Assembly (NCBI GenBank): GCA_963747695.1
Contig: CAVVFV010000010.1
Coordinates: forward strand, 133,618-197,617
DNA: 64,000 bases
Reading direction: 5' to 3'
DNA from: Candidatus Falkowbacteria bacterium
Lineage (GTDB): Bacteria; Patescibacteriota; Patescibacteriia; Patescibacteriales; WJLG01
Positions within the stretch are counted from its first letter, which is position 1. Every line of letters starts with the position of its first letter. The notes under the pieces were generated by a model. It did no database searches and had not been told where the DNA came from. It was given only the letters and a program-made list of their open reading frames with translations. The position numbers were made by a program, and so were the translations under genes. Below, in pieces: positions 3,001 through 63,720 of this stretch.

Positions 3001-4246
3001 GTCCGATCTGCGTCGGGTCGGTGTCGCCCGCGAGTGAGCCGGAAATAGCCACCGGCGTTCCTTGCGCCGCGCCGTTATAATAAAAACGCAAGTTAGCGCC
3101 GTCATAAGTTGAAGCGACATAGTTGTATGAGCCGGAGACGATGCCGGTCGTACCGGTCAAGCCGTATTGCGTGCCGCCAACGTCAATTTCCGTGCGCAGG
3201 TGTTGCGGAGTTGAGGCGTCATAGGTCAAGTTGTAAATACTGTACGGAGCCGCCGCAGTGGGAGTGGTTTTGGCCACGATCTTGGCATTTGCCACTTGCG
3301 TCGGTTTGGGACTGATCCAGGCCGACAAGGTCATATTGGTAAGAGCGGTCAGGTTGCCGAGATTGATACCGGTGGTCGCTCCATCAAAACTTCTTGCGCC
3401 GTTGGCACCGCCGAATTTGCTGGTGGTCGCCGTCGTACCGACATTCGTTCCATTGAAAGAACCGACTGAATCCTTAAAATTACTATTGTTCAAGTGATAA
3501 ACCGAGATATAGCTATTGGTCCAAACGCCGCGGGCGCCGAAAGTCGTGGAAGAAGCCGGCTGCGAAGCGGTCGATGAACCGTAATATAAATAGAAGACGG
3601 GGTTAGACGAAGAAGAGATGGCGTCAGCGCGGAAATAAACTTCACCGGTTTTGGAGGAGGTAGAGATCGAAACGATCTCGACCGGCATTCTGGTGCCGGA
3701 GGAATTAGTGATCAAAATATCGCCGCCGTCGCTATTCCTCTTGGTATGAGTCCAGAAATTATTAGTCGAACCCAATCGATTCATTTCCAGATAGATCGGA
3801 AAATTTGTTAGAGACCCCCCGACCCTGGCCGCCTGGACCGTGATCGGCTGGCGATATTTATAACTTTTATCAAACCACCCGGTCGTGGTCGTGGCATTGG
3901 CCCAAATGCCGCTGCCGCAGGAAGAAAAAGTCGTACCGGTTTTGCAGAAAGAAGCCGGCGCGGTGGTGGCGGTAGTGAAAGAAGAAGGACTGGTGATCAA
4001 TTGGTAATAAACCAAGAACGGATCGGTTGCGTCGGAGGAAGTTGCCTGGAGATTGACCGTGCCATTGGTTACCCAAGCGCCGTTAGTGATGGCGGTCGAA
4101 GTGCTCGGTCCATATTGTTGCAGAGACGACGGATTAGCCGGCGCGGCCTGAGTGAAAAAATAACTAAAAATAAAGATGACTAAAACCATAACCAGCCCGG
4201 CGCCCATAAACCACCAATGGCTATTTTTTAATAATTTCTCCGGCAT
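1..4246 (-). CDS. Giant cell-surface protein (over 1415 aa), 5' complete, 3' end lies beyond the window start. Order: N-terminal membrane anchor, DUF2341-like region, LamG/concanavalin-like lectin domain, FN3-like domain, 7 tandem IPT/TIG-like Ig repeats, Big-like domain(s)
   Basis: Absent from the ORF track because it has no in-window stop. My translation of the minus strand is open from ATG at 4246 (MPEKLLKNSHWWFMGAGLVMVLVIFIF) to position 1. Motifs read: KYRQPITV..FPIYLEM..DGGDI; SVYHLN..FDG..LSAWI..YDGANLRFYYNG..IDEVRIVSVARSPKWL; VDTSVPTAPG..WAYDYAGN; repeated PTTVSISPNTKTVGDAQFTMTIKGTNF..SSTQLTATIPASD..GGGTSNAQTFTV. Domain names are assigned from memory of family consensus. Confidence 0.85.
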   Translation of the reverse strand, partial: MPEKLLKNSHWWFMGAGLVMVLVIFIFSYFFTQAAPANPSSLQQYGPSTSTAITNGAWVTNGTVNLQATSSDATDPFLVYYQLITSPSSFTTATTAPASFCKTGTTFSSCGSGIWANATTTTGWFDKSYKYRQPITVQAARVGGSLTNFPIYLEMNRLGSTNNFWTHTKRNSDGGDILITNSSGTRMPVEIVSISTSSKTGEVYFRADAISSSSNPVFYLYYGSSTASQPASSTTFGARGVWTNSYISVYHLNNSNFKDSVGSFNGTNVGTTATTSKFGGANGARSFDGATTGINLGNLTALTNMTLSAWISPKPTQVANAKIVAKTTPTAAAPYSIYNLTYDASTPQHLRTEIDVGGTQYGLTGTTGIVSGSYNYVASTYDGANLRFYYNGAAQGTPVAISGSLAGDTDPTQIGRSYFGGTAIKEWFRGAIDEVRIVSVARSPKWLSTEYNNMSSPGTFYTTTTPEQYYLTNNKKAVKIISLPDSTASTTGYKWQSLACDSSSVCSKNWTAFNAASPNFKVDTSVPTAPGALTPTASTTASMTLKYGATSTEDAALFRQYKIYYRVGTSTPIHETDLLWGSSSDANLRNINFNRKVTTTVTGLSFATRYSFSIWAYDYAGNKSSSTLSTGITAGNPVPTTVSVSPATKNVYDAQFTITVKGTNFIASSVVKFNGSSRTTTFSSSTQLTATILASDLLKATTTDQITVFNPSPFGGTSNAQSFTVNYPVPTTVSISPATKTVGDAQFVMTIKGADFVTSSVARYNGSNLTTTFSSSTQLTATIPATDMLKATTTAAITVFNTTPGGGTSNAQTFTVNNPIPTTVSISPNTKTVGDAQFTVIIKGTNFVATSQVQFNGSNRTTTFASSTQLTATIPASDMTNATTTAQITVVNPAPGGGTSNAQTFTVNNPIPTTVSISPNTKTVGDAQFTMTIKGTNFVNTSVAQFNGSALSTIFASSTQLTATIPATDMLKATTTAAITVFNTTPGGGTSNAQTFTVNNPIPTTVSISPNTKTVGDAQFTMTIKGTNFVNTSVVRFNGSDRVTSYSSSTQLTATIPASDMLTASDTIQITVFNPAPGGGTSNAQTFTVNATAPTTVSISPDTKTVGDAQFIMTVKGTNFLNSSIVRFNGADRATSFSSSTQLTVVIPASDMLSATTTAEITVFNPVHGDTSNAQIFTVNNPVPTTISITPHLKTVGDSQFTMTVKGTNFVNTSVARFNGSDRATSYSSSTELTATIPASDLTVVTSTAEITVFNPVPGGGTSNAQTFTVTSSAPVATKFVIVQPADGTVDAPIVVTVKAEDALNNVVTNYQQDVTLLITGSATGGGLINIVNGVGTTSISDQVAETVHLSLSDTQSTGLDVSSASTAVFAAGVTAAFSLNNPGNIIAGNRAAYVVTRKDQYGNLTTQGNTTVYL
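438..2345 (-). repeat. Seven tandem ~273-nt (91-aa) intragenic repeats encoding IPT/TIG-like domains; several units are near-identical at DNA level
   Basis: The period is set by identical shadow ORFs at 1180-1407 and 1726-1953 (offset 546 = 2x273). A ~115-nt core is identical in the three units starting near 1165, 1438 and 1711. Confidence 0.85.
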
Positions 4247-9303: not shown

Positions 9304-10349
9304 TGTGCGCCGGTCCGGCAGCTTCCAACCAGTTCCCTGCCTGCCGGCAGGCAGGGTTGCCCGCTGACGTGCCCCCGGCACGTCAGCGTCGCTCGATCAT
9401 TCGTCTCGGCTTCCGCCTCGACTCATATCTCGCTCGCAACCAGTTCGAATCCCCATATCTTACAAAAATAAAAATCACCCAGAGGGTGATTTTTATTTTT
9501 GTGCGCTCAGAGGGATTTCCGCGTTCGCTCGCCGCCGGAATGCGGCTCGCTCTCTTGTCCAGGGTTGCCCGCTGACGTGCCCCCGGCACGTCAGCGTCGC
9601 TCGATCATTCGTCTCGGCTTCCGCCTCGACTCATATCTCGCTCGCAACCAGTTCGAATCCCCATATCTTACAAAAATAAAAATCACCCAGAGGGTGATTT
9701 TTATTTTTGTGCGCTCAGAGGGATTTCCGCGTTCGCTCGCCGCCGGAATGCGGCTCGCTCTCTTGTCCAGGGTTGCCCGCTGACGTGCCCCCGGCACGTC
9801 AGCGTCGCTCGATCATTCGTCTCGGCTTCCGCCTCGACTCATATCTCGCTCGCAACCAGTTCGAATCCCCATATCTTACAAAAATAAAAATCACCCAGAG
9901 GGTGATTTTTATTTTTGTGCGCTCAGAGGGATTTCCGCGTTCGCTCGCCGCCGGAATGCGGCTCGCTCTCTTGTCCAGGGTTGCCCGCTGACGTGCCCCC
10001 GGCACGTCAGCGTCGCTCGATCATTCGTCTCGGCTTCCGCCTCGACTCATATCTCGCTCGCAACCAGTTCGAATCCCCATATCTTACAAAAATAAAAATC
10101 ACCCAGAGGGTGATTTTTATTTTTGTGCGCTCAGAGGGATTTCCGCGTTCGCTCGCCGCCGGAATGCGGCTCGCTCTCTTGTCCAGGGTTGCCCGCTGAC
10201 GTGCCCCCGGCACGTCAGCGTCGCTCGATCATTCGTCTCGGCTTCCGCCTCGACTCATATCTCGCTCGCAACCAGTTCGAATCCCCATATCTTACAAAAA
10301 TAAAAATCACCCAGAGGGTGATTTTTATTTTTGTGCGCTCAGAGGGATT
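9304..10349. repeat. Perfect 208-bp tandem array. Five copies of a 146-nt body plus an 18-nt tRNA-Lys 3'-end segment, and four copies of a 44-nt spacer, running directly into tRNA-Lys
   Basis: Unit starts at 9354, 9562, 9770, 9978 and 10186. The track shows four identical 68-aa and three identical 94-aa phantom ORFs at 208-nt spacing. A degenerate TGTGCGC at 9304 marks the distal boundary. Confidence 0.95.
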
Positions 10350-10406
10350 CGAACCCACGACCGTCTCCTTAAGAGGGAGCTGCTCTACCAACTGAGCTAT
10401 GAGCGC
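10334..10406 (-). tRNA. tRNA-Lys (anticodon CTT), no encoded CCA
   Basis: Hand-folded: GCGCTCA/TGAGCGC acceptor, GCTC-AGTTGGTA-GAGC D arm, CTCTTAA anticodon loop, GTGGG-TTCGAAT-CCCTC T arm. It has one U-U T-stem mismatch and one G-A anticodon-stem mismatch. Confidence 0.85.
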
Positions 10407-10412
10407 AAAATT

Positions 10413-10528
10413 CAGATTTAAGTTAAGAAAGAAGAGATAAGGGATAAAAATATAATATCAATTTAACAGAAAATAGTCATTTGTCAACAAAAAAATTTCT
10501 TATCTTTTATCTCTTCTCTCTTATCTGA
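10413..10528. repeat. Imperfect palindrome with purine-rich / pyrimidine-rich arms (CAGAT..AAGAGATAAGGGATAA ... TATCTCTTCTCTCTTATCTGA)
   Basis: Arms read directly. The core CTCTTCTCTCTTATCT recurs in trmD and queA, and near-identically in ruvB. Confidence 0.6.
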
Positions 10529-10535
10529 TTTTGTG

Positions 10536-10609
10536 TGGCGGGGGAGAGAATTGAACTCTCGACCTCGGCGTTATGAATGCCGTGCTCTAACCAGCTGAGC
10601 TACCCAGCC
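10536..10609 (-). tRNA. tRNA with CAT anticodon (elongator Met, or Ile2 if lysidine-modified), no encoded CCA
   Basis: Hand-folded to 74 nt: GGCTGGG/CCCCGCC acceptor (one U-C mismatch), TTCATAA anticodon loop, GAGAG-TTCAATT-CTCTC T arm. Confidence 0.8.
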
Positions 10610-10647
10610 AATGTTTTATCTTTTTTTTAGTTTTATAAAGAATATAT

Positions 10648-10698
10648 GCCGTGCTCCCTGTCCCGCTTCGGCGGGATAACCAGCTGAGCTACCCAGCC
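10648..10698 (-). pseudogene. Truncated 5' copy of the CAT tRNA (positions ~1-31) carrying a 20-nt GC hairpin inserted in the D loop
   Basis: GGCTGGGTAGCTCAGCTGGTTA-[TCCCGCCGAAGCGGGACAGG]-GAGCACGGC, then unrelated AT-rich sequence. No anticodon or T arm. Confidence 0.75.
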
Positions 10699-10703
10699 AA
10701 ATT

Positions 10704-10768
10704 CAATTAAAAGTTAAAAATGAAAAATTACAAATAATTTTTAATTTTGCATTTTTAACTTTTAATTG
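10704..10768. repeat. Perfect 19-bp inverted repeat (CAATTAAAAGTTAAAAATG / CATTTTTAACTTTTAATTG) around a 27-nt loop
   Basis: Read directly. Confidence 0.8.
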
Positions 10769-10771
10769 ACT

Positions 10772-10847
10772 TGGTGCGCCCGGCAAGGATCGAACTCGCA
10801 GCCTCTTGGTCCGAAGCCAAGCGCTCTATCCATTGAGCTACGGGCGC
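10772..10847 (-). tRNA. tRNA-Arg (anticodon TCG), CCA encoded
   Basis: GCGCCCG/CGGGCGC acceptor, CTTGG-CTTCGGA-CCAAG anticodon arm, GCGAG-TTCGATC-CTTGC T arm, ACCA end. Confidence 0.9.
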
Positions 10848-14650: not shown

Positions 14651-14750
14651 TTTTAATTTTGTAATTTTTAAATTTTTAAAGAATTTTTAATTCCTAATTT
14701 TTTAAAAATTAAAAATTGGGATTTATTTAAAAATTTAAAAATTATAAAAT
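14651..14750. repeat. AT-only palindromic element (ends TTTTAATTTTGTAATTTTTAAA / TTTAAAAATTATAAAATTA)
   Basis: The left 23 nt are identical to 46551-46573. The right end matches 46659-46672. Confidence 0.65.
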
Positions 14751-14790
14751 TATTGTGTATTTTAAATAATAAATTTTAAATCTAAAGAAT

Positions 14791-17582: not shown

Positions 17583-17661
17583 TGTCATTCCCGCGAAGGC
17601 GGGGATCCAGAATCGTTCGTAATGGATAATTTTACTGGATTCCCGCCTTCGCGGGAATGAC
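17583..17661. repeat. TGTCAT-terminated palindromic mini-element, family A (27-bp inverted arms TGTCATTCCCGCGAAGGCGGGGATCCAG / CTGGATTCCCGCCTTCGCGGGAATGAC)
   Basis: Read directly. Ends 5 nt before the rnhB ATG. Confidence 0.8.
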
Positions 17662-17665
17662 CTGA

Positions 17666-22023: not shown

Positions 22024-22068
22024 ATGCTTATTTAACGCCAAGCTTTTTCTTACATTTTCTTGTCTTAA

Positions 22069-22157
22069 AATGTTATATTGTTATATTGTCATATTGTGGC
22101 GCAACGATTTAAAAACTTTTAACAATATAGCAATATAACAATATTGCAATATATTCC
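22069..22157. repeat. ATATTG-octamer palindromic element filling the infB-rbfA spacer
   Basis: TGTTATATTGTTATATTGTCATATTG-TGGCGCAACGATTTAAAAACTTTT-AACAATATAGCAATATAACAATATTGCAATATA. Confidence 0.8.
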
Positions 22158-33215: not shown

Positions 33216-34394
33216 CTATTTGATAAACATCGCGTCGCCATAACTGTAAAACCGATATTTTTTCTTAATCGCCTCTCGATAGGCGCGATCGATATTTTTC
33301 TTGCCGGCCAAAGCGGAAACTAACATCAATAAAGTCGATTTGGGCAGATGGAAATTGGTGATCATAGCATCGACGATCTTGAATTTATATCCCGGATAAA
33401 TAAAAATATCCACCCAATCCTTGAAGCCGCGTAGGCCCGCAATACTTTGCGGGCAGGCTTTTTCCTGCCAGCAGGCTTCCAAACTTCTCGCGCTTGTCGT
33501 TCCCACGGCGATTATCCGTGACCGCGGAACGCAAGGTATTGCGTTCCTACGATTTATTTCCGCGATAACCTTACCAACTATCTCTACCCACTCGGAATGC
33601 ATTTTATGTTCCAAGATATTTTCCGTCTTCACCGGCGCGAAAGTTCCCATTCCGACATAAAGCGTAATTTCCAAAATCTTCACGCCTTTTTTCTTAATCT
33701 TCTTCAAAAGCTCCGGCGTAAAATGCAACCCAGCCGTCGGCGCCGCCACGCTGCCGGCCTTATTATTAGCAGCATATACGGTTTGGTATTCTTGTTTGTC
33801 TTTTTCAATGATTCTCTCTTCTCTCTTATCTTTTCTCTGATTCTCTATATACGGCGGCAGCGGCACTTCGCCGATCTTTTCAATCGCTTTCATCAGCGCC
33901 GCGCCGGATTTATTGAATTGCAAATCCCAAGTACCATCATGATTATTCTTTAAAATGACGGCTGTCATCCTGAGCGGAGCGTCAGCGGAGTCGAAGGACC
34001 CCTTCGAAATTTTAGAAACTTTAAGTGGTTCCTCGACTTCGGCCGTGGCGGCCTTCGCTCGGAATGACAGATGTAAATTTTCGCTCACCCGGCCACCCAG
34101 TAAACACTGCCAAGTATTCGCGCTCAATTTTTTATGCAATAAAACTTCAACTTTCCCGCCGGTTTCTTTTTTCTTCGCCCACAGCCGCGCCGGAATGACT
34201 TTGGAATTATTCAATACCAAAATATCGCCCGGATTCAAATAATCGATGATATCAAAAAAATGCTTATGTTCGATCTTGCCCGTCTTCTTGTCCAGCACTA
34301 AAAGCCGCGAACTGTCTCGCGGCTCAGCCGGATGCGTGGCGATCAATCCATCCGGCAAATTAAAGTCGTAATCACTCAACTTCACGTAACGCAT
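33216..34394 (-). CDS. queA: S-adenosylmethionine:tRNA ribosyltransferase-isomerase, about 50 aa longer than typical because of in-frame repeat insertions
   Basis: YDFNLP..LIA..P...RD.SRLLV..; PLPPYI; GSVAAPTAGLHFT; IIAVGTTSARSLE; NFHLPKSTLLMLVSA. Confidence 0.9.
   Translation of the reverse strand: MRYVKLSDYDFNLPDGLIATHPAEPRDSSRLLVLDKKTGKIEHKHFFDIIDYLNPGDILVLNNSKVIPARLWAKKKETGGKVEVLLHKKLSANTWQCLLGGRVSENLHLSFRAKAATAEVEEPLKVSKISKGSFDSADAPLRMTAVILKNNHDGTWDLQFNKSGAALMKAIEKIGEVPLPPYIENQRKDKREERIIEKDKQEYQTVYAANNKAGSVAAPTAGLHFTPELLKKIKKKGVKILEITLYVGMGTFAPVKTENILEHKMHSEWVEIVGKVIAEINRRNAIPCVPRSRIIAVGTTSARSLEACWQEKACPQSIAGLRGFKDWVDIFIYPGYKFKIVDAMITNFHLPKSTLLMLVSALAGKKNIDRAYREAIKKKYRFYSYGDAMFIK
33963..34069. 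mobile_element. TGTCAT-terminated palindromic element (family B relative) inserted in frame inside queA
   Basis: TGTCATCCTGAGCGGAGCG..GTCGAAGGACCCCTTCGAA..GGTTCCTCGACTTCGGCC..GCCTTCGCTCGGAATGACA. Same termini and core as the intergenic copies at 55762-55871 and 56413-56523. Translated as ..RAKAATAEVEEPLKVSKISKGSFDSADAPLRMTA.. Confidence 0.75.
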
Positions 34395-46544: not shown

Positions 46545-46680
46545 TTGAATTTTTAATTTTGTAATTTTTAAATAAGTCTTAATTTTTAATTATTAAACTT
46601 TGAAATTACCGCTGGTTTAAAAATTAATAATTTGACCTTAAAAATTATTTAGAAATTAAAAATTATAAAAATTTAAAAAT
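46545..46680. repeat. AT-only palindromic element, second copy (see 14651-14750)
   Basis: TTTTAATTTTGTAATTTTTAAAT ... AAATTAAAAATTATAAAAATTTAAAAAT. Confidence 0.65.
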
Positions 46681-47607
46681 TTATTTTGTCAGTTCCCTAA
46701 ACGCGTCTTCCAGCGACGCCTGATACTTGGCAATCTCCAAAACATTGAACCCGCCGATGATCAGCGCCTTGTTGATCGCGGCCCGGGCATCGCGGCCCGC
46801 TTCAGTTTCCACCTCATATAAGATGGCGCTGCCTTCCTGCCCGACCGGCACAACTTTAGTCACTCCCGGGGTTTTGCCCAACAGCGCCAAAACTTTTTCC
46901 TTGGCGCCTTCAACTTTTATCTTTACCATCTCCCTGGATTTGGTCTGCTTGATCAATTCGGCCGGACTGCCTTCGCCGACGATTTTTCCGTTATTGATGA
47001 TAATCACCCGGTCGCAAACCGCGCTCACCTCGCCCAGAATATGCGTGGAAAAAATCACGGTTTTTTCTTTGCCGATCTTCTTGATCAACTCGCGGATCTC
47101 CATTATCTGATTCGGGTCCAAGCCGGTAGTCGGTTCATCCAAAATCAAAACATCTGGATTGCCCATGATCGCCTGCGCCAATCCCACTCTTTGCCGATAG
47201 CCTTTGGATAATTCGTCGATCAATTTATTCATCACTCCGGAAACGCCGCAAGCCGCCGCCACTTCCGCCAGCCGCGACTTCAGTTTTTCACCCGACAAGC
47301 CGCGCATTTCCGCCACGAATTTCAGATACTCTCTGACTTTCAGATCTTCGTAAAGCGGCACGGTTTCCGGCAGATAGCCGATCTTGGCCCGAGTCGCGAG
47401 AGAATTATTGACTGCATCGATACCGTCGATCGTAATCGAACCGGAAGTCGGAGTCCAAAAAGAAGTGAGGATCTTCATCGTCGAAGTCTTGCCCGCGCCG
47501 TTCGGGCCCAAAAAACCGAGGATCTCCCCGGTCTTAACCGAGAAGGAAATATCGTTCAAAATCTGGGTATTACCGATCTTTTTGGTGAGATTTTTGATTT
47601 CGATCAT
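46681..47607 (-). CDS. ABC transporter ATP-binding protein (GldA-like)
   Basis: Walker A GPNGAGKTS, signature LSKGYRQRV, Walker B LILDEPTTGLD. Confidence 0.9.
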   Translation of the reverse strand: MIEIKNLTKKIGNTQILNDISFSVKTGEILGFLGPNGAGKTSTMKILTSFWTPTSGSITIDGIDAVNNSLATRAKIGYLPETVPLYEDLKVREYLKFVAEMRGLSGEKLKSRLAEVAAACGVSGVMNKLIDELSKGYRQRVGLAQAIMGNPDVLILDEPTTGLDPNQIMEIRELIKKIGKEKTVIFSTHILGEVSAVCDRVIIINNGKIVGEGSPAELIKQTKSREMVKIKVEGAKEKVLALLGKTPGVTKVVPVGQEGSAILYEVETEAGRDARAAINKALIIGGFNVLEIAKYQASLEDAFRELTK

Positions 47608-49265: not shown

Positions 49266-49447
49266 GTTTATTTAAAAATGATAGATGATAAATGATAGAT
49301 GATAAATTTCTTAACATTATTTATCACTTATCATTTATTATTAATCATTGATACAACCTATTGCTTTTTTTATTAATTTATGTTATACTATTTAGACGTT
49401 CATTTGAAATTAATTAGCCATAAAATCCAATCAACGAAAGGATTGCC

Positions 49448-55761: not shown

Positions 55762-55871
55762 TGTCATTCCGACCGAGCACGCCGCGTGCGAGCGGAGGAA
55801 CCGCTTCGAGTTATTTAAAACTTTAAGGGGTCCTTCGACTGCGGCCGAGGCGGCCTTCGCTCAGGATGACA
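55762..55871. repeat. TGTCAT-terminated palindromic element, family B, filling the grpE-hsp20 spacer
   Basis: TGTCATTCCGACCGAGCACGCCGCGTGCGAGCGGAGGAACCGCTTCGAG..CTTTAAGGGGTCCTTCGACTGCGGCCGAGGCGGCCTTCGCTCAGGATGACA. Confidence 0.85.
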
Positions 55872-56412: not shown

Positions 56413-56523
56413 TGTCATTCCGACCGAACGCGCCGCGCGTGAGCGGAGGAACCGCTTCGAGTTTTTTAAAAACTTTAAGGGGTCCTTCGACTGCGGCCGC
56501 GGCGGCCTTCGCTCAGGATGACA
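56413..56523. repeat. TGTCAT-terminated palindromic element, family B, filling the hrcA-grpE spacer
   Basis: About 95% identical to 55762-55871 by eye. Confidence 0.85.
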
Positions 56524-59786: not shown

Positions 59787-61476
59787 ATGTTCTCTGTCGT
59801 CCTCATCACCGGTTTGTTTCTGGTTGCCGTGTGTTGGTTGGTCCACTTTGTCGCGTGGGTCAACTCAAAAATGCTCGCGCCCGACGGATCAGTCGAGTGG
59901 CTAAAAGTGAACGGCAAGGAAGACCGCGCCCAGATCGCGCTGAAGTTTTACTTCGGCGACAATTTTGGGTGGACGATCAGCGTCCTGCGTTCCGTCTTCC
60001 GCGTCCTGATCAAGGTCGCCGCGACACTCTGGCGTTTCACCGCTCCGGCCATCGTCAGAGCCGCCAAAAAAATTCAGTTGTCGCTTTCCATAGCGCGGCT
60101 GAAAATTTTGAAAGCGCGCGCTGAAAAGAAAGCCAAGGCGGCGCGGAAAATCGTGCCGGTCATTCCCAAAGCGCGGCAGGTCAAAGCTGACAAGAAAAAG
60201 GAATTCGTCCCGATTCGGATCGAAGAACCAAAAACGGAACTGCTCGCAACAGCAAAGCTTGCGGCGGCGGAACCGGTGGCGGAAAAAGACGAGGAGCTGA
60301 CGCTGAAAGAAAAACTGGCGGCGCTCTTTGCCAAATTACTTCCCGCGAAGCCGGTGAAGAAACCCGTGCCGGTGAAAAAACCGACCGATCGGGACTTGCT
60401 TGACCAGTATCATCGCGATGCTGAAAAAACCGTCGACTACCGAACGCAAATGCATTACCTCGAACTCGCCAAAACGCAAATTCCCTTGGACATCTTTATC
60501 AGAATGCCTGGTGGAGCCGAAATTCTGGATAAATATCTGGAAAGTAATCTTTGGGTCAGGCGGCGCTGGGAATCAGTTTGCCAATATTATTTCAGTCTGC
60601 CGTTTGAAGAACTCAATGACGAATCGTGGGTTCGGCATTGGCATTATACGGTCTGCCTGGAATCCATCCTCAAAACCGCCATCGTTCTTCCTTCCGAAGA
60701 AAAACCGGCCGATCCGATAGTCCAGCACTTCCAAACGTCGCTGCCTGAACAACAAAGCGGCGTCACGCTGGCCAATTCGAACGGAGTTTCGTTCGCTACG
60801 CTTTTTGACAAGACGGTGGGCAAAATTGTCCATGAGGATAACGAATCCCTGCCCGCCTTAGTCGAAAAACCGAACACGGAAGCGAATGACGCCTCACGAA
60901 CATCCGCTACGGCAAATCCGCCGGCGGCTGCGACCAAAGAAAAAACTTCCGAACCGGAAATCAAAATCGCCAAAGTCGAGGCGGTCGTCACGGGTAAGGA
61001 AGACAAAGAAAAAGTAAGCGTACTGATCAAACAGGTTGATCGCACGAAGGAAGTCCAAACTCGCCAAACAAATCCGCAATCGGAAGGAGAGAGTATGAAA
61101 TTCTGGGAAGATCTGAAAAATGTGTTGGGCCTGATCCCACGCCTGAAAGGACGGTCAAAGGACGTCAAAAAAGCGCACGACGAGCTGATCGTAGCCGCCC
61201 TTAAAAAACAGGTTGCGGATACGAACAGCGATGTGCTGGTCGCCGACAAAGCCAACATGGAATTGCGCAGAGCAATTTCTCAACGAGAAAAAGAATCTGC
61301 TTCCTTTGGAACAGGAAGTCAGCGAATCATGGTTGTTGCACTACATAGAGCTCGATGAAGCCAAGAAAGCCCACGAGCAAGGCAAAACCATCGAAGAAAT
61401 CAAGCTCAAACTCAGTTCGCCCAAGGATGGCGAACCGGAAACTATGCCCAAAGCGGCTCAAGAACAGCTGGCCTAA
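59787..61476 (+). CDS. Hypothetical membrane-anchored, Lys-rich/coiled-coil protein. The track ORF ends at 61358, but the reading frame appears to shift by +1 near the A5 run at 61288-61292 and continue to 61476
   Basis: GGGAGG SD. N-terminal TM VVLITGLFLVAVCWLVHFVAW. The +1 frame (KKNLLPLEQEVSESWLLHYIELDEAKKAHEQG..) ends 25 nt before a strong terminator. Confidence 0.6.
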
Positions 61477-61500
61477 GGCGAGCAAGCATCAAATGTATCG

Positions 61501-61537
61501 ACCCTGACTGTCTTATTCAGTCGGGGTCTTTTTTTAT
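61501..61537 (+). terminator. Intrinsic terminator
   Basis: ACCCTGACTG-TCTTAT-TCAGTCGGGGT followed by T7. Confidence 0.7.
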
Positions 61538-61637: not shown

Positions 61638-61667
61638 TTGACTTTTCATGCTATTTTATGCTATACT
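61638..61667 (+). promoter_or_regulatory. Strong sigma-70-like promoter with extended -10 (TTGACT-18-TATACT, TGC immediately upstream of the -10)
   Basis: Read directly. The predicted TSS near 61674 gives a ~270-nt leader for the SPFH gene. Confidence 0.6.
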
Positions 61668-61700
61668 AAAATGATTTGGAATAAGGCAAATTCTGCCAAG

Positions 61701-61863
61701 GGGACTGTCATCGAATGCTCATTTAGTCATAAATTTTCAAATTTTGAGGAAATTTTTTTCAAAAATTTTTGAAGCGATATGACCATATCGTTGAAAAGAT
61801 TTTTGAAAAAATTTACCGAAATTTGAAGATTTAGGGCAAATACGGCATTCGATGACAGTTCCC
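61701..61863 (+). other. About 163-nt imperfect long hairpin (TGTCAT-containing 18-bp outer stem, AT-rich inner stems, apical CGATATG-ACC-ATATCG). Either a structured 5' leader or a MITE-like element
   Basis: GGGACTGTCATCGAATGC pairs with GCATTCGATGACAGTTCCC. TTCAAATTT, AAATTTTTT and CAAAAAT segments pair across the axis near 61783. Confidence 0.6.
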
Positions 61864-61947
61864 GAATCTGAATCAAATGTCCCTTACAATTTTTTGTAAG
61901 TAACATCAAAACAATCCATTCTGAAACCTTAATCAAAGGAGTCCTGT

Positions 61948-63720
61948 ATGATGAACGCGCTTATCGTTGTCGCGATTGTGTTGGCTGTCTATCTTCTCGC
62001 CCGGTTCTGGATCTTCCGGAACTGGTTCGCGAAGAGAAAGACGGAGACCGAGTATGAGAAACGATTGTCGGAAATCCGCGCGACCGAAGAAGGAAGAAGG
62101 GTCGCCGACGAAATCCGCCTAACTGAGCTGGACCTCGAAAGAACGAAGAAGCAAACCTTGACCGAACAGGAAAAGATCAACCTCATCCAGTTGCGCAAAA
62201 CTCATCTCGAGTTGAAGCGGTCATTGCTCAAATCCTTGAAGGATGAAGAGCCGACTGCCGGCGCAACGGACTCCGGAGTCGAAGATTCCCAAAACAAGCG
62301 AAGCCGTCGCGGGAAAAAAGGCTGGTCAGTAATGATCAGTTTAGTTTCGCTGGCCGCAATCGTCATTTGGGCCGGAATGAGTTTTCTCAATCACTGGGAA
62401 TGGCCCGCCACCTATCTGCCGATCATCGGTATGATCGCGGCCGCCGTGCTCATCATCAGGAGACTTAATTCGAACAAAAAAAACAAGGTCAACCAGACAG
62501 GAAACAAGACGGGCAGGAAGTCCAAACCAGGCAAAAAAAAGAGCAAAGAAATTACTCAATTATTTTACCCTCACTGGTTATGGATTTCGTTTCTGGCAAT
62601 GATAAGTCTTATTCCTATTACCGTTTTGATTCTGAATCTTTCTTGGCAGTACAGTCAGAAACATCCGGCAATTTTTTATCTCAGCATTGTCATTTCCCTG
62701 CTCATCGCGGCTTATTATCTGGTGCGTACGGTCAAAGGCGCAAACAATCCGTTGCCGGAAAAAGATGAGTTTGCCGTAACTATTTTTAAAAAATATTGCG
62801 GCACAAGGAAAACCCCCGGGCTATTCTTTGCCTTTCCCCTTTTCGGCTGGGTCGAACTTCTGGGCATAAGCACGGAAGACGATCAAGAGCAATTATTCCA
62901 AGTGGTCGATAAAGAAGGAAAAGTGAGCACGGCGCGGTTTGACCTCGACGATGCGAGCGTTCCCCTGCTGGCCGACGTCTTCTTCCGAATCGTCGATGCG
63001 TATAAATTCCTTTTCGGCAATGAAGATAGCGTCCAGTCCATGGTCGAATATGTCGAAGCCTATCTGCGGCGAGTCTTTATAGTGCCAGCGGATGCGGCAA
63101 GCGGAAAATCAGAACGAGTCATGAATTTGGAAGAAGCCTTACTGTTCAAAGCCAAAGACATGATCACCCGCTTTAATACCGAGAATAACGAAAACGGAGA
63201 AGTTCATCGTGATTTCGTTAAGTCTCATTGGGGAATAGAAGTTTTTCGGATCCAGATCAGGGACTTTGACCTAAATGAAGAACAGCGCAAAGCGTTAAAT
63301 ATGAAACTTGAAGCGAAAAAAAGAAAAGAAGCGGCCCGGGAAGATGCCGATGCCGAAGCTGTGCGAGCTGACGGCAAAGCGCGCGGAATCGAAAGGCTGG
63401 CTAAAGCAAGCCGGGTGGAATTTGCGGAAAATGCCGCAGGATATTCGGATGCCGTAAACTCGTTCGCGGGCAAAGTCGAACCCGACGAAGTTCTTTTTCA
63501 CATTAGGGAAATGAGAAAATTCGGTATGCCTAATGCCACCCTCGTCATCAGCGACGGAGGCGGCAATGCGGCATTTGGCGCCCAATTCGAAGCGGGCCGC
63601 CAAGCTTACAACAGAAACAACGAAAGGAAAGAACCAAATGCTGAAACCATATTACCCAAGAAACGGCCGGACGGTTCAAAGGAAGGAACAGGGTCTTCCG
63701 ACAAAAAACCCAACGGCTGA
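61948..63720 (+). CDS. Polytopic membrane protein with a C-terminal SPFH/Band-7 (prohibitin/flotillin-like) domain
   Basis: AAAGGAG SD. About five TM segments with a coiled coil and a Lys-rich linker. SPFH-like FRIVDAYKFLFG..WGIEVFRIQIRDFDL..EAKKRKEAAREDADAEA. Confidence 0.7.
   Translation: MMNALIVVAIVLAVYLLARFWIFRNWFAKRKTETEYEKRLSEIRATEEGRRVADEIRLTELDLERTKKQTLTEQEKINLIQLRKTHLELKRSLLKSLKDEEPTAGATDSGVEDSQNKRSRRGKKGWSVMISLVSLAAIVIWAGMSFLNHWEWPATYLPIIGMIAAAVLIIRRLNSNKKNKVNQTGNKTGRKSKPGKKKSKEITQLFYPHWLWISFLAMISLIPITVLILNLSWQYSQKHPAIFYLSIVISLLIAAYYLVRTVKGANNPLPEKDEFAVTIFKKYCGTRKTPGLFFAFPLFGWVELLGISTEDDQEQLFQVVDKEGKVSTARFDLDDASVPLLADVFFRIVDAYKFLFGNEDSVQSMVEYVEAYLRRVFIVPADAASGKSERVMNLEEALLFKAKDMITRFNTENNENGEVHRDFVKSHWGIEVFRIQIRDFDLNEEQRKALNMKLEAKKRKEAAREDADAEAVRADGKARGIERLAKASRVEFAENAAGYSDAVNSFAGKVEPDEVLFHIREMRKFGMPNATLVISDGGGNAAFGAQFEAGRQAYNRNNERKEPNAETILPKKRPDGSKEGTGSSDKKPNG

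Follow-up and report, generated by a model that had tools for sequence, protein, structure and literature searches.

In a 64,000-nucleotide stretch of the Candidatus Falkowbacteria contig CAVVFV010000010.1 (positions 133,618 to 197,617; hereafter the window), the 5' leader of a gene for an SPFH-domain membrane protein contains a 165-nt AT-rich palindrome, which is absent from two orthologous leaders and recurs at an unrelated locus in a distant organism. We read this palindrome as a lineage-specific insertion of a family resembling miniature inverted-repeat transposable elements (MITEs), one that most likely acts as RNA, and we would give this reading as a whole a probability of about 0.6. Its parts differ in strength. 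The palindrome is very probably an inserted repeat element, a function at the RNA level has roughly even odds, and action through RNase III specifically is doubtful. The family appears to be undescribed so far, as it has no Rfam match and we found no description of it in the literature.

The element has a GC content of 32%, against ~47% in the surrounding window, and consists mostly of two 70-nt arms forming an inverted repeat (61700-61769 and 61794-61863). At minimum energy, the RNA from 61695 to 61870 folds into a single extended hairpin with 72 pairs (-81.8 kcal/mol). Dinucleotide shuffles of the same sequence average -32.4 kcal/mol (standard deviation 3.75; z = -13.2), and 0/200 of them fold as well. 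The hairpin is closed by a GC-rich outer clamp of 20 contiguous pairs (61700-61719 with 61844-61863) and capped by the apical loop GACC (61781-61784), with AT-rich inner helices and a tandem G.A 2x2 loop in between. It still forms when the whole leader is folded. The element has no coding capacity, since only spurious short open reading frames (ORFs) cross it. No family in Rfam release 15 reaches its gathering threshold on the element, and within the window only tRNAs pass; the best match on the element is a plant microRNA precursor (49.5 bits against a gathering score of 117), and such sub-threshold matches reflect the generic shape of a long hairpin.

The element and its surroundings are laid out as follows, all on the forward (+) strand:

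61500-61528, +: intrinsic terminator of the upstream gene, an 11-bp stem followed by a T-run (terminator scan)
61638-61667, +: sigma-70-type promoter, TTGACT (61638-61643), an 18-nt spacer and TATACT (61662-61667), with TG before the -10 (promoter scan)
61674-61697, +: native leader structure, with the 5' strand of helix P1 at 61674-61682 and helix P2 formed by GGCA (61685-61688) and TGCC (61694-61697) (RNAalifold and single folds)
61700-61864, +: AT-rich palindromic element of 165 nt, very probably inserted (inverted-repeat scan, folding and covariance model)
61865-61873, +: 3' strand of P1, AATCTGAAT, pairing with 61674-61682 (full-leader fold and RNAalifold)
61877-61906, +: native hairpin P3 (ATGTCCCTTACAA / TTGTAAGTAACAT), present in the orthologous locus L001 and not in L259
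61936-61941, +: Shine-Dalgarno sequence AAGGAG, 6 nt before the ATG (read from the sequence)
61948-63720, +: SPFH gene, encoding a 590-aa membrane protein with a C-terminal SPFH/Band 7 domain

The terminator marks the boundary where the SPFH gene's own transcription unit begins, and it is near-identical in L001 and recognisable in L259. The promoter scores 10 of 12 consensus matches in the promoter scan and would place the start of transcription at about 61674, upstream of the hairpin. A promoter 3' of the hairpin was rejected, because the same scan found no promoter-like site between the hairpin and the start codon. The terminator scan likewise found no intrinsic terminator or U-run 3' of the hairpin, on which ground an intrinsic terminator or attenuator was rejected as a reading of the hairpin. 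The Shine-Dalgarno sequence lies 72 nt beyond the end of the hairpin and is not paired with the element in the full-leader fold. The domain assignment of the downstream gene rests on Pfam PF01145 (E = 4.4e-8), and the window as a whole is bacterial chromosome, encoding DnaK, HrcA, FtsH and an AddA-type helicase-nuclease. A preliminary description of this DNA had proposed an extended -10 promoter (TTGACT-18-TATACT) followed by a long hairpin in the leader of an SPFH gene. The promoter was recovered by the scan and is kept in two orthologous loci, the hairpin does lie 3' of it, and the 18-bp outer stem, AT-rich inner stems and apical CGATAT/ATATCG stem it described are all present. Only the details shift: the stem base is at 61700 rather than 61701, the unit ends at 61864, and the apical loop is GACC.

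Relatives of the SPFH protein are very few, the nearest of them coming from a Candidatus Omnitrophota metagenome-assembled genome. A full-length search returned only the protein itself and P0002 (42% identity), and a domain-only search added P0003 (53% identity over the domain). The loci of both relatives are syntenic, with a TPR gene on the opposite strand, then a large ORF, then the SPFH gene. We used the syntenic orthologous SPFH loci, L001 and L259, for comparison, making three leaders with that of the window. In L001, the terminator, promoter (TTGACT-17-TATACT) and leader are conserved almost base for base; identity to the window is 91% across the promoter and 5' leader and 80% across the 3' leader, compared with 67-75% in the adjoining coding DNA. 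Positions 61700-61864 are nevertheless absent from L001. This was seen by gap-tolerant pairwise alignment, which replaced a global MAFFT alignment misled by two different insertions in the intergenic regions. The empty site in L001 reads ...TTCTGCCA/ATTCTGGGTCAAATG..., while the filled site in the window reads ...TTCTGCCA/A-GGGGACTGTCAT...ATGACAGTTCCC-G/AATCTGAATCAAATG... (slashes marking the junctions). L259 also keeps the promoter, followed by a leader of 95 nt with no long inverted repeat. Comparing the leader in orthologous loci had been suggested as a check in the preliminary description, and both orthologues keep the promoter and leader without the hairpin.

The neighbouring proteins indicate that the window and L001 are sisters and L259 the outgroup: the TPR protein is 74% identical between the window and L001 but 31-32% identical to that of L259, and the large ORF 50% versus 25-27%. 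With L259 as outgroup, one gain is simpler than two losses, and the hairpin is most simply a lineage-specific gain in the window lineage, judging from these sequence comparisons. The converse, that the hairpin is ancestral to the SPFH leader and was precisely deleted in the lineages of L001 and L259, we regard as very unlikely. Long palindromes are indeed deletion-prone, and a three-taxon comparison, being unrooted, cannot by itself separate gain from loss. However, with L259 outside the pair of window and L001, this history takes two independent precise losses instead of one gain, and an element specific to the SPFH leader would not predict the homologous copy at an unrelated locus in a distant organism.

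That copy was identified through an exhaustive protein search, in which a 69-codon spurious minus-strand ORF crossing the element served as a proxy query. The single match, P0004, aligned only at element-encoded residues. The DNA behind it is L260, a contig of 577 nt in the Hainich H43 groundwater assembly; this contig carries a full-length copy of the element, 81.6% identical (133/163 positions). The context is unrelated: the copy follows the C-terminus of ruvB (Pfam RuvB_C) and precedes a different gene by 88 nt. In the window, a different gene begins 9 nt after ruvB, so the two ruvB contexts are not comparable. The RuvB C-terminus encoded by L260 shares only 48% identity with the RuvB of the window, which marks the host of L260 as distant. 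A promoter (TTGAAA-18-TAAAAT, with TG) ends 7 nt before the L260 element, and the predicted transcription start is the first base of the element, that is, the base of the hairpin. In L260 and the window alike, the element thus has the same orientation to the downstream gene and sits just 3' of an extended -10 promoter. At the level of sequence, 82% identity in a non-coding element shared with so distant a host speaks for inter-lineage mobility, strong selection, or both. A mobile element is the favoured reading because of this copy together with the empty sites in L001 and L259; the preliminary description had offered a mobile palindrome landed in a 5' untranslated region (UTR) as its alternative, and this is the idea that the comparison favours.

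The insertion point lies inside a structure that belongs to the leader itself. For the three orthologous leaders, RNAalifold predicts 13 pairs, of which 3 show compensatory changes, and single-sequence folds agree. In this structure P1 encloses P2, and it starts at the predicted transcription start. With three sequences, support for P1/P2 as a conserved leader structure is modest. The element fits precisely into the gap that separates P2 from the 3' strand of P1. As the insert pairs internally, P1 and P2 should still be able to form, making the leader a predicted three-way junction, which would mean that the hairpin belongs to a 5'-terminal structured domain. An insert that folds on itself and leaves P1/P2 intact is also one whose insertion can be tolerated. 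P1/P2 may perhaps be a cis-regulatory motif of its own, given the 91% identity in the promoter and leader against 67-75% in coding DNA. Separately, part of the Shine-Dalgarno sequence is predicted to be covered in each of the three leaders by a CCU(U)...AAGG helix (window 61926-61941; L001 3766-3782; L259 6640-6656), although this helix is only 3-4 bp long.

A comparison of the two copies indicates on which strand the structure has been kept. In the window, the sense strand folds at -81.8 kcal/mol and the antisense strand at -58.2 kcal/mol; in L260, the corresponding values are -72.4 and -54.9 kcal/mol. The sense strand is thus favoured by 24 and 17.5 kcal/mol, respectively. A covariance model built from both copies (R1) scores 190 bits for the sense strand of each (190.5 in the window), compared with 110.2 bits for the antisense strand of the window and 96 bits for that of L260. 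We also counted mismatches between the left arm and the reverse complement of the right arm in each copy, which avoids the bias of considering predicted pairs only. By this count the window copy has 6 G.U and no A.C, and the L260 copy has 7 G.U and one A.C, which occupies the outermost and possibly flanking position. Since two G.U positions are common to both copies, there are ~11 independent G.U mismatches against at most one A.C (binomial p ~0.003); a DNA palindrome decaying neutrally would be expected to show both in equal numbers.

The pairs that differ between the copies tell the same strand-specific story. Four pairs have changed on both sides and eight on one side via G.U, the 20-bp terminal clamp is retained in L260 with compensatory changes, and both copies keep the tandem G.A/A.G 2x2 loop beneath the apical stem. 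The excess of G.U, the energy gaps, the compensatory pairs and the G.A loop together argue that the structure is maintained on one strand, and the simplest reading of this pattern would be selection on the folded sense-strand transcript, as RNA.

A mechanism consistent with these results would begin with a small, non-coding, AT-rich element with terminal inverted repeats landing in the P1 loop of the SPFH leader, presumably mobilised by a transposase. The parent insertion sequence, if the element is a MITE, would have ends starting GGGGACTGTC. From then on, the element would be transcribed from the conserved upstream promoter within the SPFH mRNA, and the transcript is predicted to fold into a 72-bp hairpin closed by the 20-bp GC-rich clamp. 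This long double-stranded segment might be cleaved or bound by RNase III. On paper, such a target is plausible: RNase III substrates have double-stranded stretches of about two helical turns or more, and the 20-bp uninterrupted clamp and the 72 modelled pairs are long enough. Alternatively, the hairpin could be a stable, protective 5'-proximal stem that alters mRNA decay, especially in L260, where it would begin at +1. Either mode would be expected to alter the amount of SPFH protein, by analogy with the Correia and ERIC precedents discussed below.

Several observations weigh against this reading. We know of no cognate transposase. Target-site duplications are not evident, the flanks being CCAA/element/GAAT in the window and ATAA/element/GCAT in L260; a possible AA/AA duplication at the window flanks is not repeated in L260, with two copies only to compare. 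The termini, GGGG.../...CCC(G) in both copies, are not the TA typical of many bacterial MITEs. A motif search saw no RNase III gene within the 64 kb of the window, although so short a stretch says little about the whole genome. The orientation shared by the two copies (n=2) has a 50% chance of arising by accident, and strand-biased mutation could add to the excess of G.U, although 11:1 is far beyond typical biases.

Few copies are known, too. Neither BLAST nor the covariance model found a second copy within the window, and the known total stands at two, each copy coming from a different organism. Exact terminal-repeat scans were run with GRACTGTCATCGAATGC in 185,579 species genomes and part of the metagenome contigs, and with ACTGTCATCGAATGC in viral contigs; among the matches listed (at least 257 loci) there were only chance single-arm matches, with no second arm and no interior similarity. 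The terminal-repeat pattern is, however, too strict even for the L260 copy, which differs inside it (TGTCGAC). A profile search with the two translated copies gave nothing beyond P0004, and the conserved 19-mer AAAAATTTACCGAAATTTG is absent from the viral contigs. R1, when run on the window, L001, L259 and L260, found no diverged copies, and its best extra match (17583-17663) is an unrelated GC-rich palindrome. The search for other copies that the preliminary description had called for gave none in the window and one at the unrelated L260 locus.

The element could instead be a purely selfish or neutral MITE in a tolerant P1 loop, its hairpin a by-product of the inverted repeats needed for transposition. 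This fits the insertion relative to the orthologues and the position at a junction where a self-folding insert spares P1/P2, and with two copies the common orientation and the 5'-UTR position could both be chance. We nonetheless consider it unlikely, because transitions of the G.T and A.C types should then be equally frequent, while ~11 against at most one were observed, on the same strand in both copies. Nor does neutrality sit well with strand energy gaps of 24 and 17.5 kcal/mol in the two copies, or with the conservation of a non-canonical tandem G.A loop. Strand asymmetry would also be expected if the hairpin were selected as single-stranded DNA, for instance as the substrate of a Y1 (IS200/IS605- or REP/RAYT-type) transposase, with its 5'-UTR position incidental. 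Lack of an evident target-site duplication is also typical of Y1 systems. However, the known IS200/IS605 and REP elements have short (~20-40 nt) subterminal or single hairpins, unlike a hairpin running end to end over 165 nt, and an RNA role explains what a DNA role does not, namely that each copy follows a promoter directly and points the same way as the gene 3' of it. A single-stranded DNA substrate thus seems quite improbable.

Other explanations keep the element as RNA. It is unlikely that the element, rather than just a decaying MITE, is a horizontally spreading, orientation-specific structured-RNA module, taken up behind strong promoters and kept by selection at the RNA level. Such a portable 5'-UTR hairpin, with its GC clamp, conserved internal loops and tandem G.A motif, might be where a double-strand-specific RNase or an RNA-binding protein docks or where processing occurs, or it might act as a 5' stabiliser. 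If true, it would be a mobile post-transcriptional control element in distantly related groundwater bacteria. To our knowledge, RNA regulation has not yet been characterised in the Omnitrophota and their neighbours. A precursor or gene of a small RNA (a processed double-stranded product or an independent transcript) is far less probable still. The predicted start in L260 coincides with the first base of the element, and the only weak Rfam matches are to long-hairpin microRNA precursors; but these fall far below threshold and are of generic hairpin shape, neither copy is followed by an intrinsic terminator or U-run, and in both loci a gene with its own ribosome-binding site begins 83-88 nt downstream. 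Retron or CRISPR-like readings were set aside from the gene content, there being no reverse transcriptase or repeat array nearby.

The preliminary description had also suggested that the hairpin could act as an RNA thermometer, in which AT-rich stems melt with warming and free translation. We give this almost no credence. The inner helices are indeed AT-rich, and there is a very weak Rfam match to a ROSE-like family (E = 2.1; 16.8 bits, where the gathering score is 76). However, folding over a temperature series predicts one and the same structure between 10 and 55 C, and most of it persists at 65 C, with neither the clamp nor the inner helices open yet. The hairpin forms no pairs with the Shine-Dalgarno sequence or the start codon, which lie 72-84 nt downstream of it, and the orthologues work without it. 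As the hairpin stays folded to 65 C and makes no contact with the ribosome-binding site, it is not a thermometer; with no melting in the physiological range and no sequestered Shine-Dalgarno, the ROSE and fourU types were rejected.

The reading we prefer, that of a MITE-like palindrome co-transcribed within a 5' leader, describes an already well-known phenomenon. Measured against the features that define bacterial MITEs (Delihas, 2008; PMC2229807), the element is small (165 nt, below ~200 bp), non-coding, bounded by terminal inverted repeats (20 pairs) and A+T-rich, with a predicted long, stable stem-loop transcript and with filled and empty sites between relatives. It lacks the 5'-TA-3' termini of most, though not all, families. 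As to repetition, one further copy (82% identical) occurs in another organism, and none else in the 64-kb window. Our literature search found no paper linking Omnitrophota with MITEs, and a search for the motif TGTCATCCTGAG returned only unrelated primer sequences.

Correia elements (CREE/NEMIS) provide the closest parallel for a position between promoter and gene. In Neisseria, one of these lies between the promoter and mtrCDE, becomes part of the mRNA and is cleaved by RNase III (PMC2649163). Like the element described here, they are short (~105-157 bp) and non-coding, have terminal inverted repeats, are present or absent between relatives, and often sit between promoter and gene with a hairpin in the mRNA, which RNase III binds or cleaves in Neisseria (PMC2649163, PMC2229807). 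Unlike them, our element ends GGGG...CCC, whereas Correia repeats are flanked by TA/CA targets; the sequences are not similar, the host comes from an unrelated phylum, and the element has neither an outward promoter nor an IHF site (optional in Correia), no IHF consensus being present in either copy. Membership in the Correia/CREE family was therefore rejected, since the sequence is unrelated and has no Correia repeat ends or core and no IHF consensus.

Enterobacterial ERIC/IRU elements are likewise imperfect palindromes (~127 bp) that lie in transcribed intergenic regions and share a transcript with neighbouring genes; in Yersinia, co-transcribed ERIC elements affect mRNA stability depending on their orientation (PMC2229807). 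The element described here has an orientation-specific structure of that kind. Again there is no sequence similarity to our element. ERIC has 7-bp terminal repeats and TA termini rather than a 20-bp clamp, and its documented effect is exerted via RNase E on upstream transcripts, while our element is in a 5' leader. The Yersinia element YPAL/RU-2 shares other traits: YPAL is a 168-bp palindromic, mobile sequence without TA termini, recognised by empty and filled sites, and it inserts beside or across dyad symmetry (PMC2229807), much as the element here lies inside a native stem-loop. It differs in that YPAL is not AT-rich, has internal rather than terminal inverted repeats and makes target duplications of 3-26 bp, whereas our element shows none of these traits.

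The case is neat but not surprising, combining a natural pair of leaders with a clear strand-specific signature. It adds an uncultivated groundwater lineage to the few cases of leader palindromes kept as strand-specific structure, in line with the Correia/ERIC paradigm of regulation by tinkering. As the window has the promoter and leader with the hairpin, while L001 and L259 have them without it, the effect of the element on expression is directly testable. Two cautions also follow. The element creates spurious ORFs in gene calls, P0004 being an example, and the TGTCAT hexamer is unreliable as a family marker.

This hexamer had led the preliminary description to suggest that the hairpin belongs to a superfamily of mobile palindromes with TGTCAT-containing ends. 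That suggestion is unsupported. In the window copy, the hexamer lies 6 nt inside the element rather than at its tip, and L260 reads TGTCGA/TCGACA in its place, one of the double-sided pair changes between the copies falling in exactly these positions. The window does contain at least four GC-rich palindromes tipped with TGTCAT, at the following positions:

33963-34069: GC-rich TGTCAT palindrome
55762-55871: GC-rich TGTCAT palindrome
56413-56523: GC-rich TGTCAT palindrome
17584-17662: GC-rich TGTCAT palindrome

Neither BLAST nor the covariance model found any similarity between these palindromes and the 165-nt element. Taken together with a palindrome of another form in L001 (3350-3585), they resemble it in being intergenic, in being present or absent between relatives and in sharing the hexamer with the window copy. 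This group differs in having 55-66% GC, a length of 80-236 nt and TGTCAT at the extreme tip. Membership in the TGTCAT-tipped family (TGTCATYCYGAGCGAAGG...) was rejected, as the hexamer is internal, is not conserved in L260, and nothing else aligns. The palindromes of the window tipped with TGTCATYCYGAGCGAAGG have 55-59% GC and a length of 107-111 nt, with a shorter relative, TGTCATTCCCGCGAAGGCGGGG.

Two of the TGTCAT palindromes flank grpE within an hrcA-grpE-hsp20 heat-shock operon. These are insertions too, because the spacers of L259 carry different sequences; its hrcA-grpE spacer (2340-2432) has an unrelated palindrome of its own (AGTAGTATGCAGTATGG...CCGTACTACCTACTACATACT) where the window has a TGTCAT element. 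L001 has a 236-nt palindrome (3350-3585, 66% GC, with ends TTGTCATTGCGAG/CTCGCAATGACAA) between the upstream terminator and the SPFH promoter, which is absent from the window. The same intergenic region has thus been hit independently, by a different palindromic element, in the sister lineage.

Further repeats occur elsewhere in the window. Between 9462 and 10334 there are five copies of a 41-nt terminator-like palindrome (ACAAAAATAAAAATCACCCAGAGGGTGATTTTTATTTTTGT) at an exact spacing of 208 nt, forming a tandem array of ~208-nt units directly upstream of a three-tRNA cluster (10334-10847, minus strand). Several more long inverted repeats that are AT-rich and intergenic (arms of 30-49 nt) lie at 14654-14752, 46550-46683, 10700-10772, 22066-22153 and 49277-49349, all unrelated in sequence to the 165-nt element. 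Long hairpins between genes seem to be a general trait of the source genome.

Finally, the large ORF upstream of the SPFH gene (59787-61476) is apparently frameshifted at 61261-61295, near an A-run. The single 561-aa protein of L001 matches one frame up to ~61295 and another from ~61261 to the stop at 61476, which could be explained by a pseudogene, a programmed frameshift or an assembly error.

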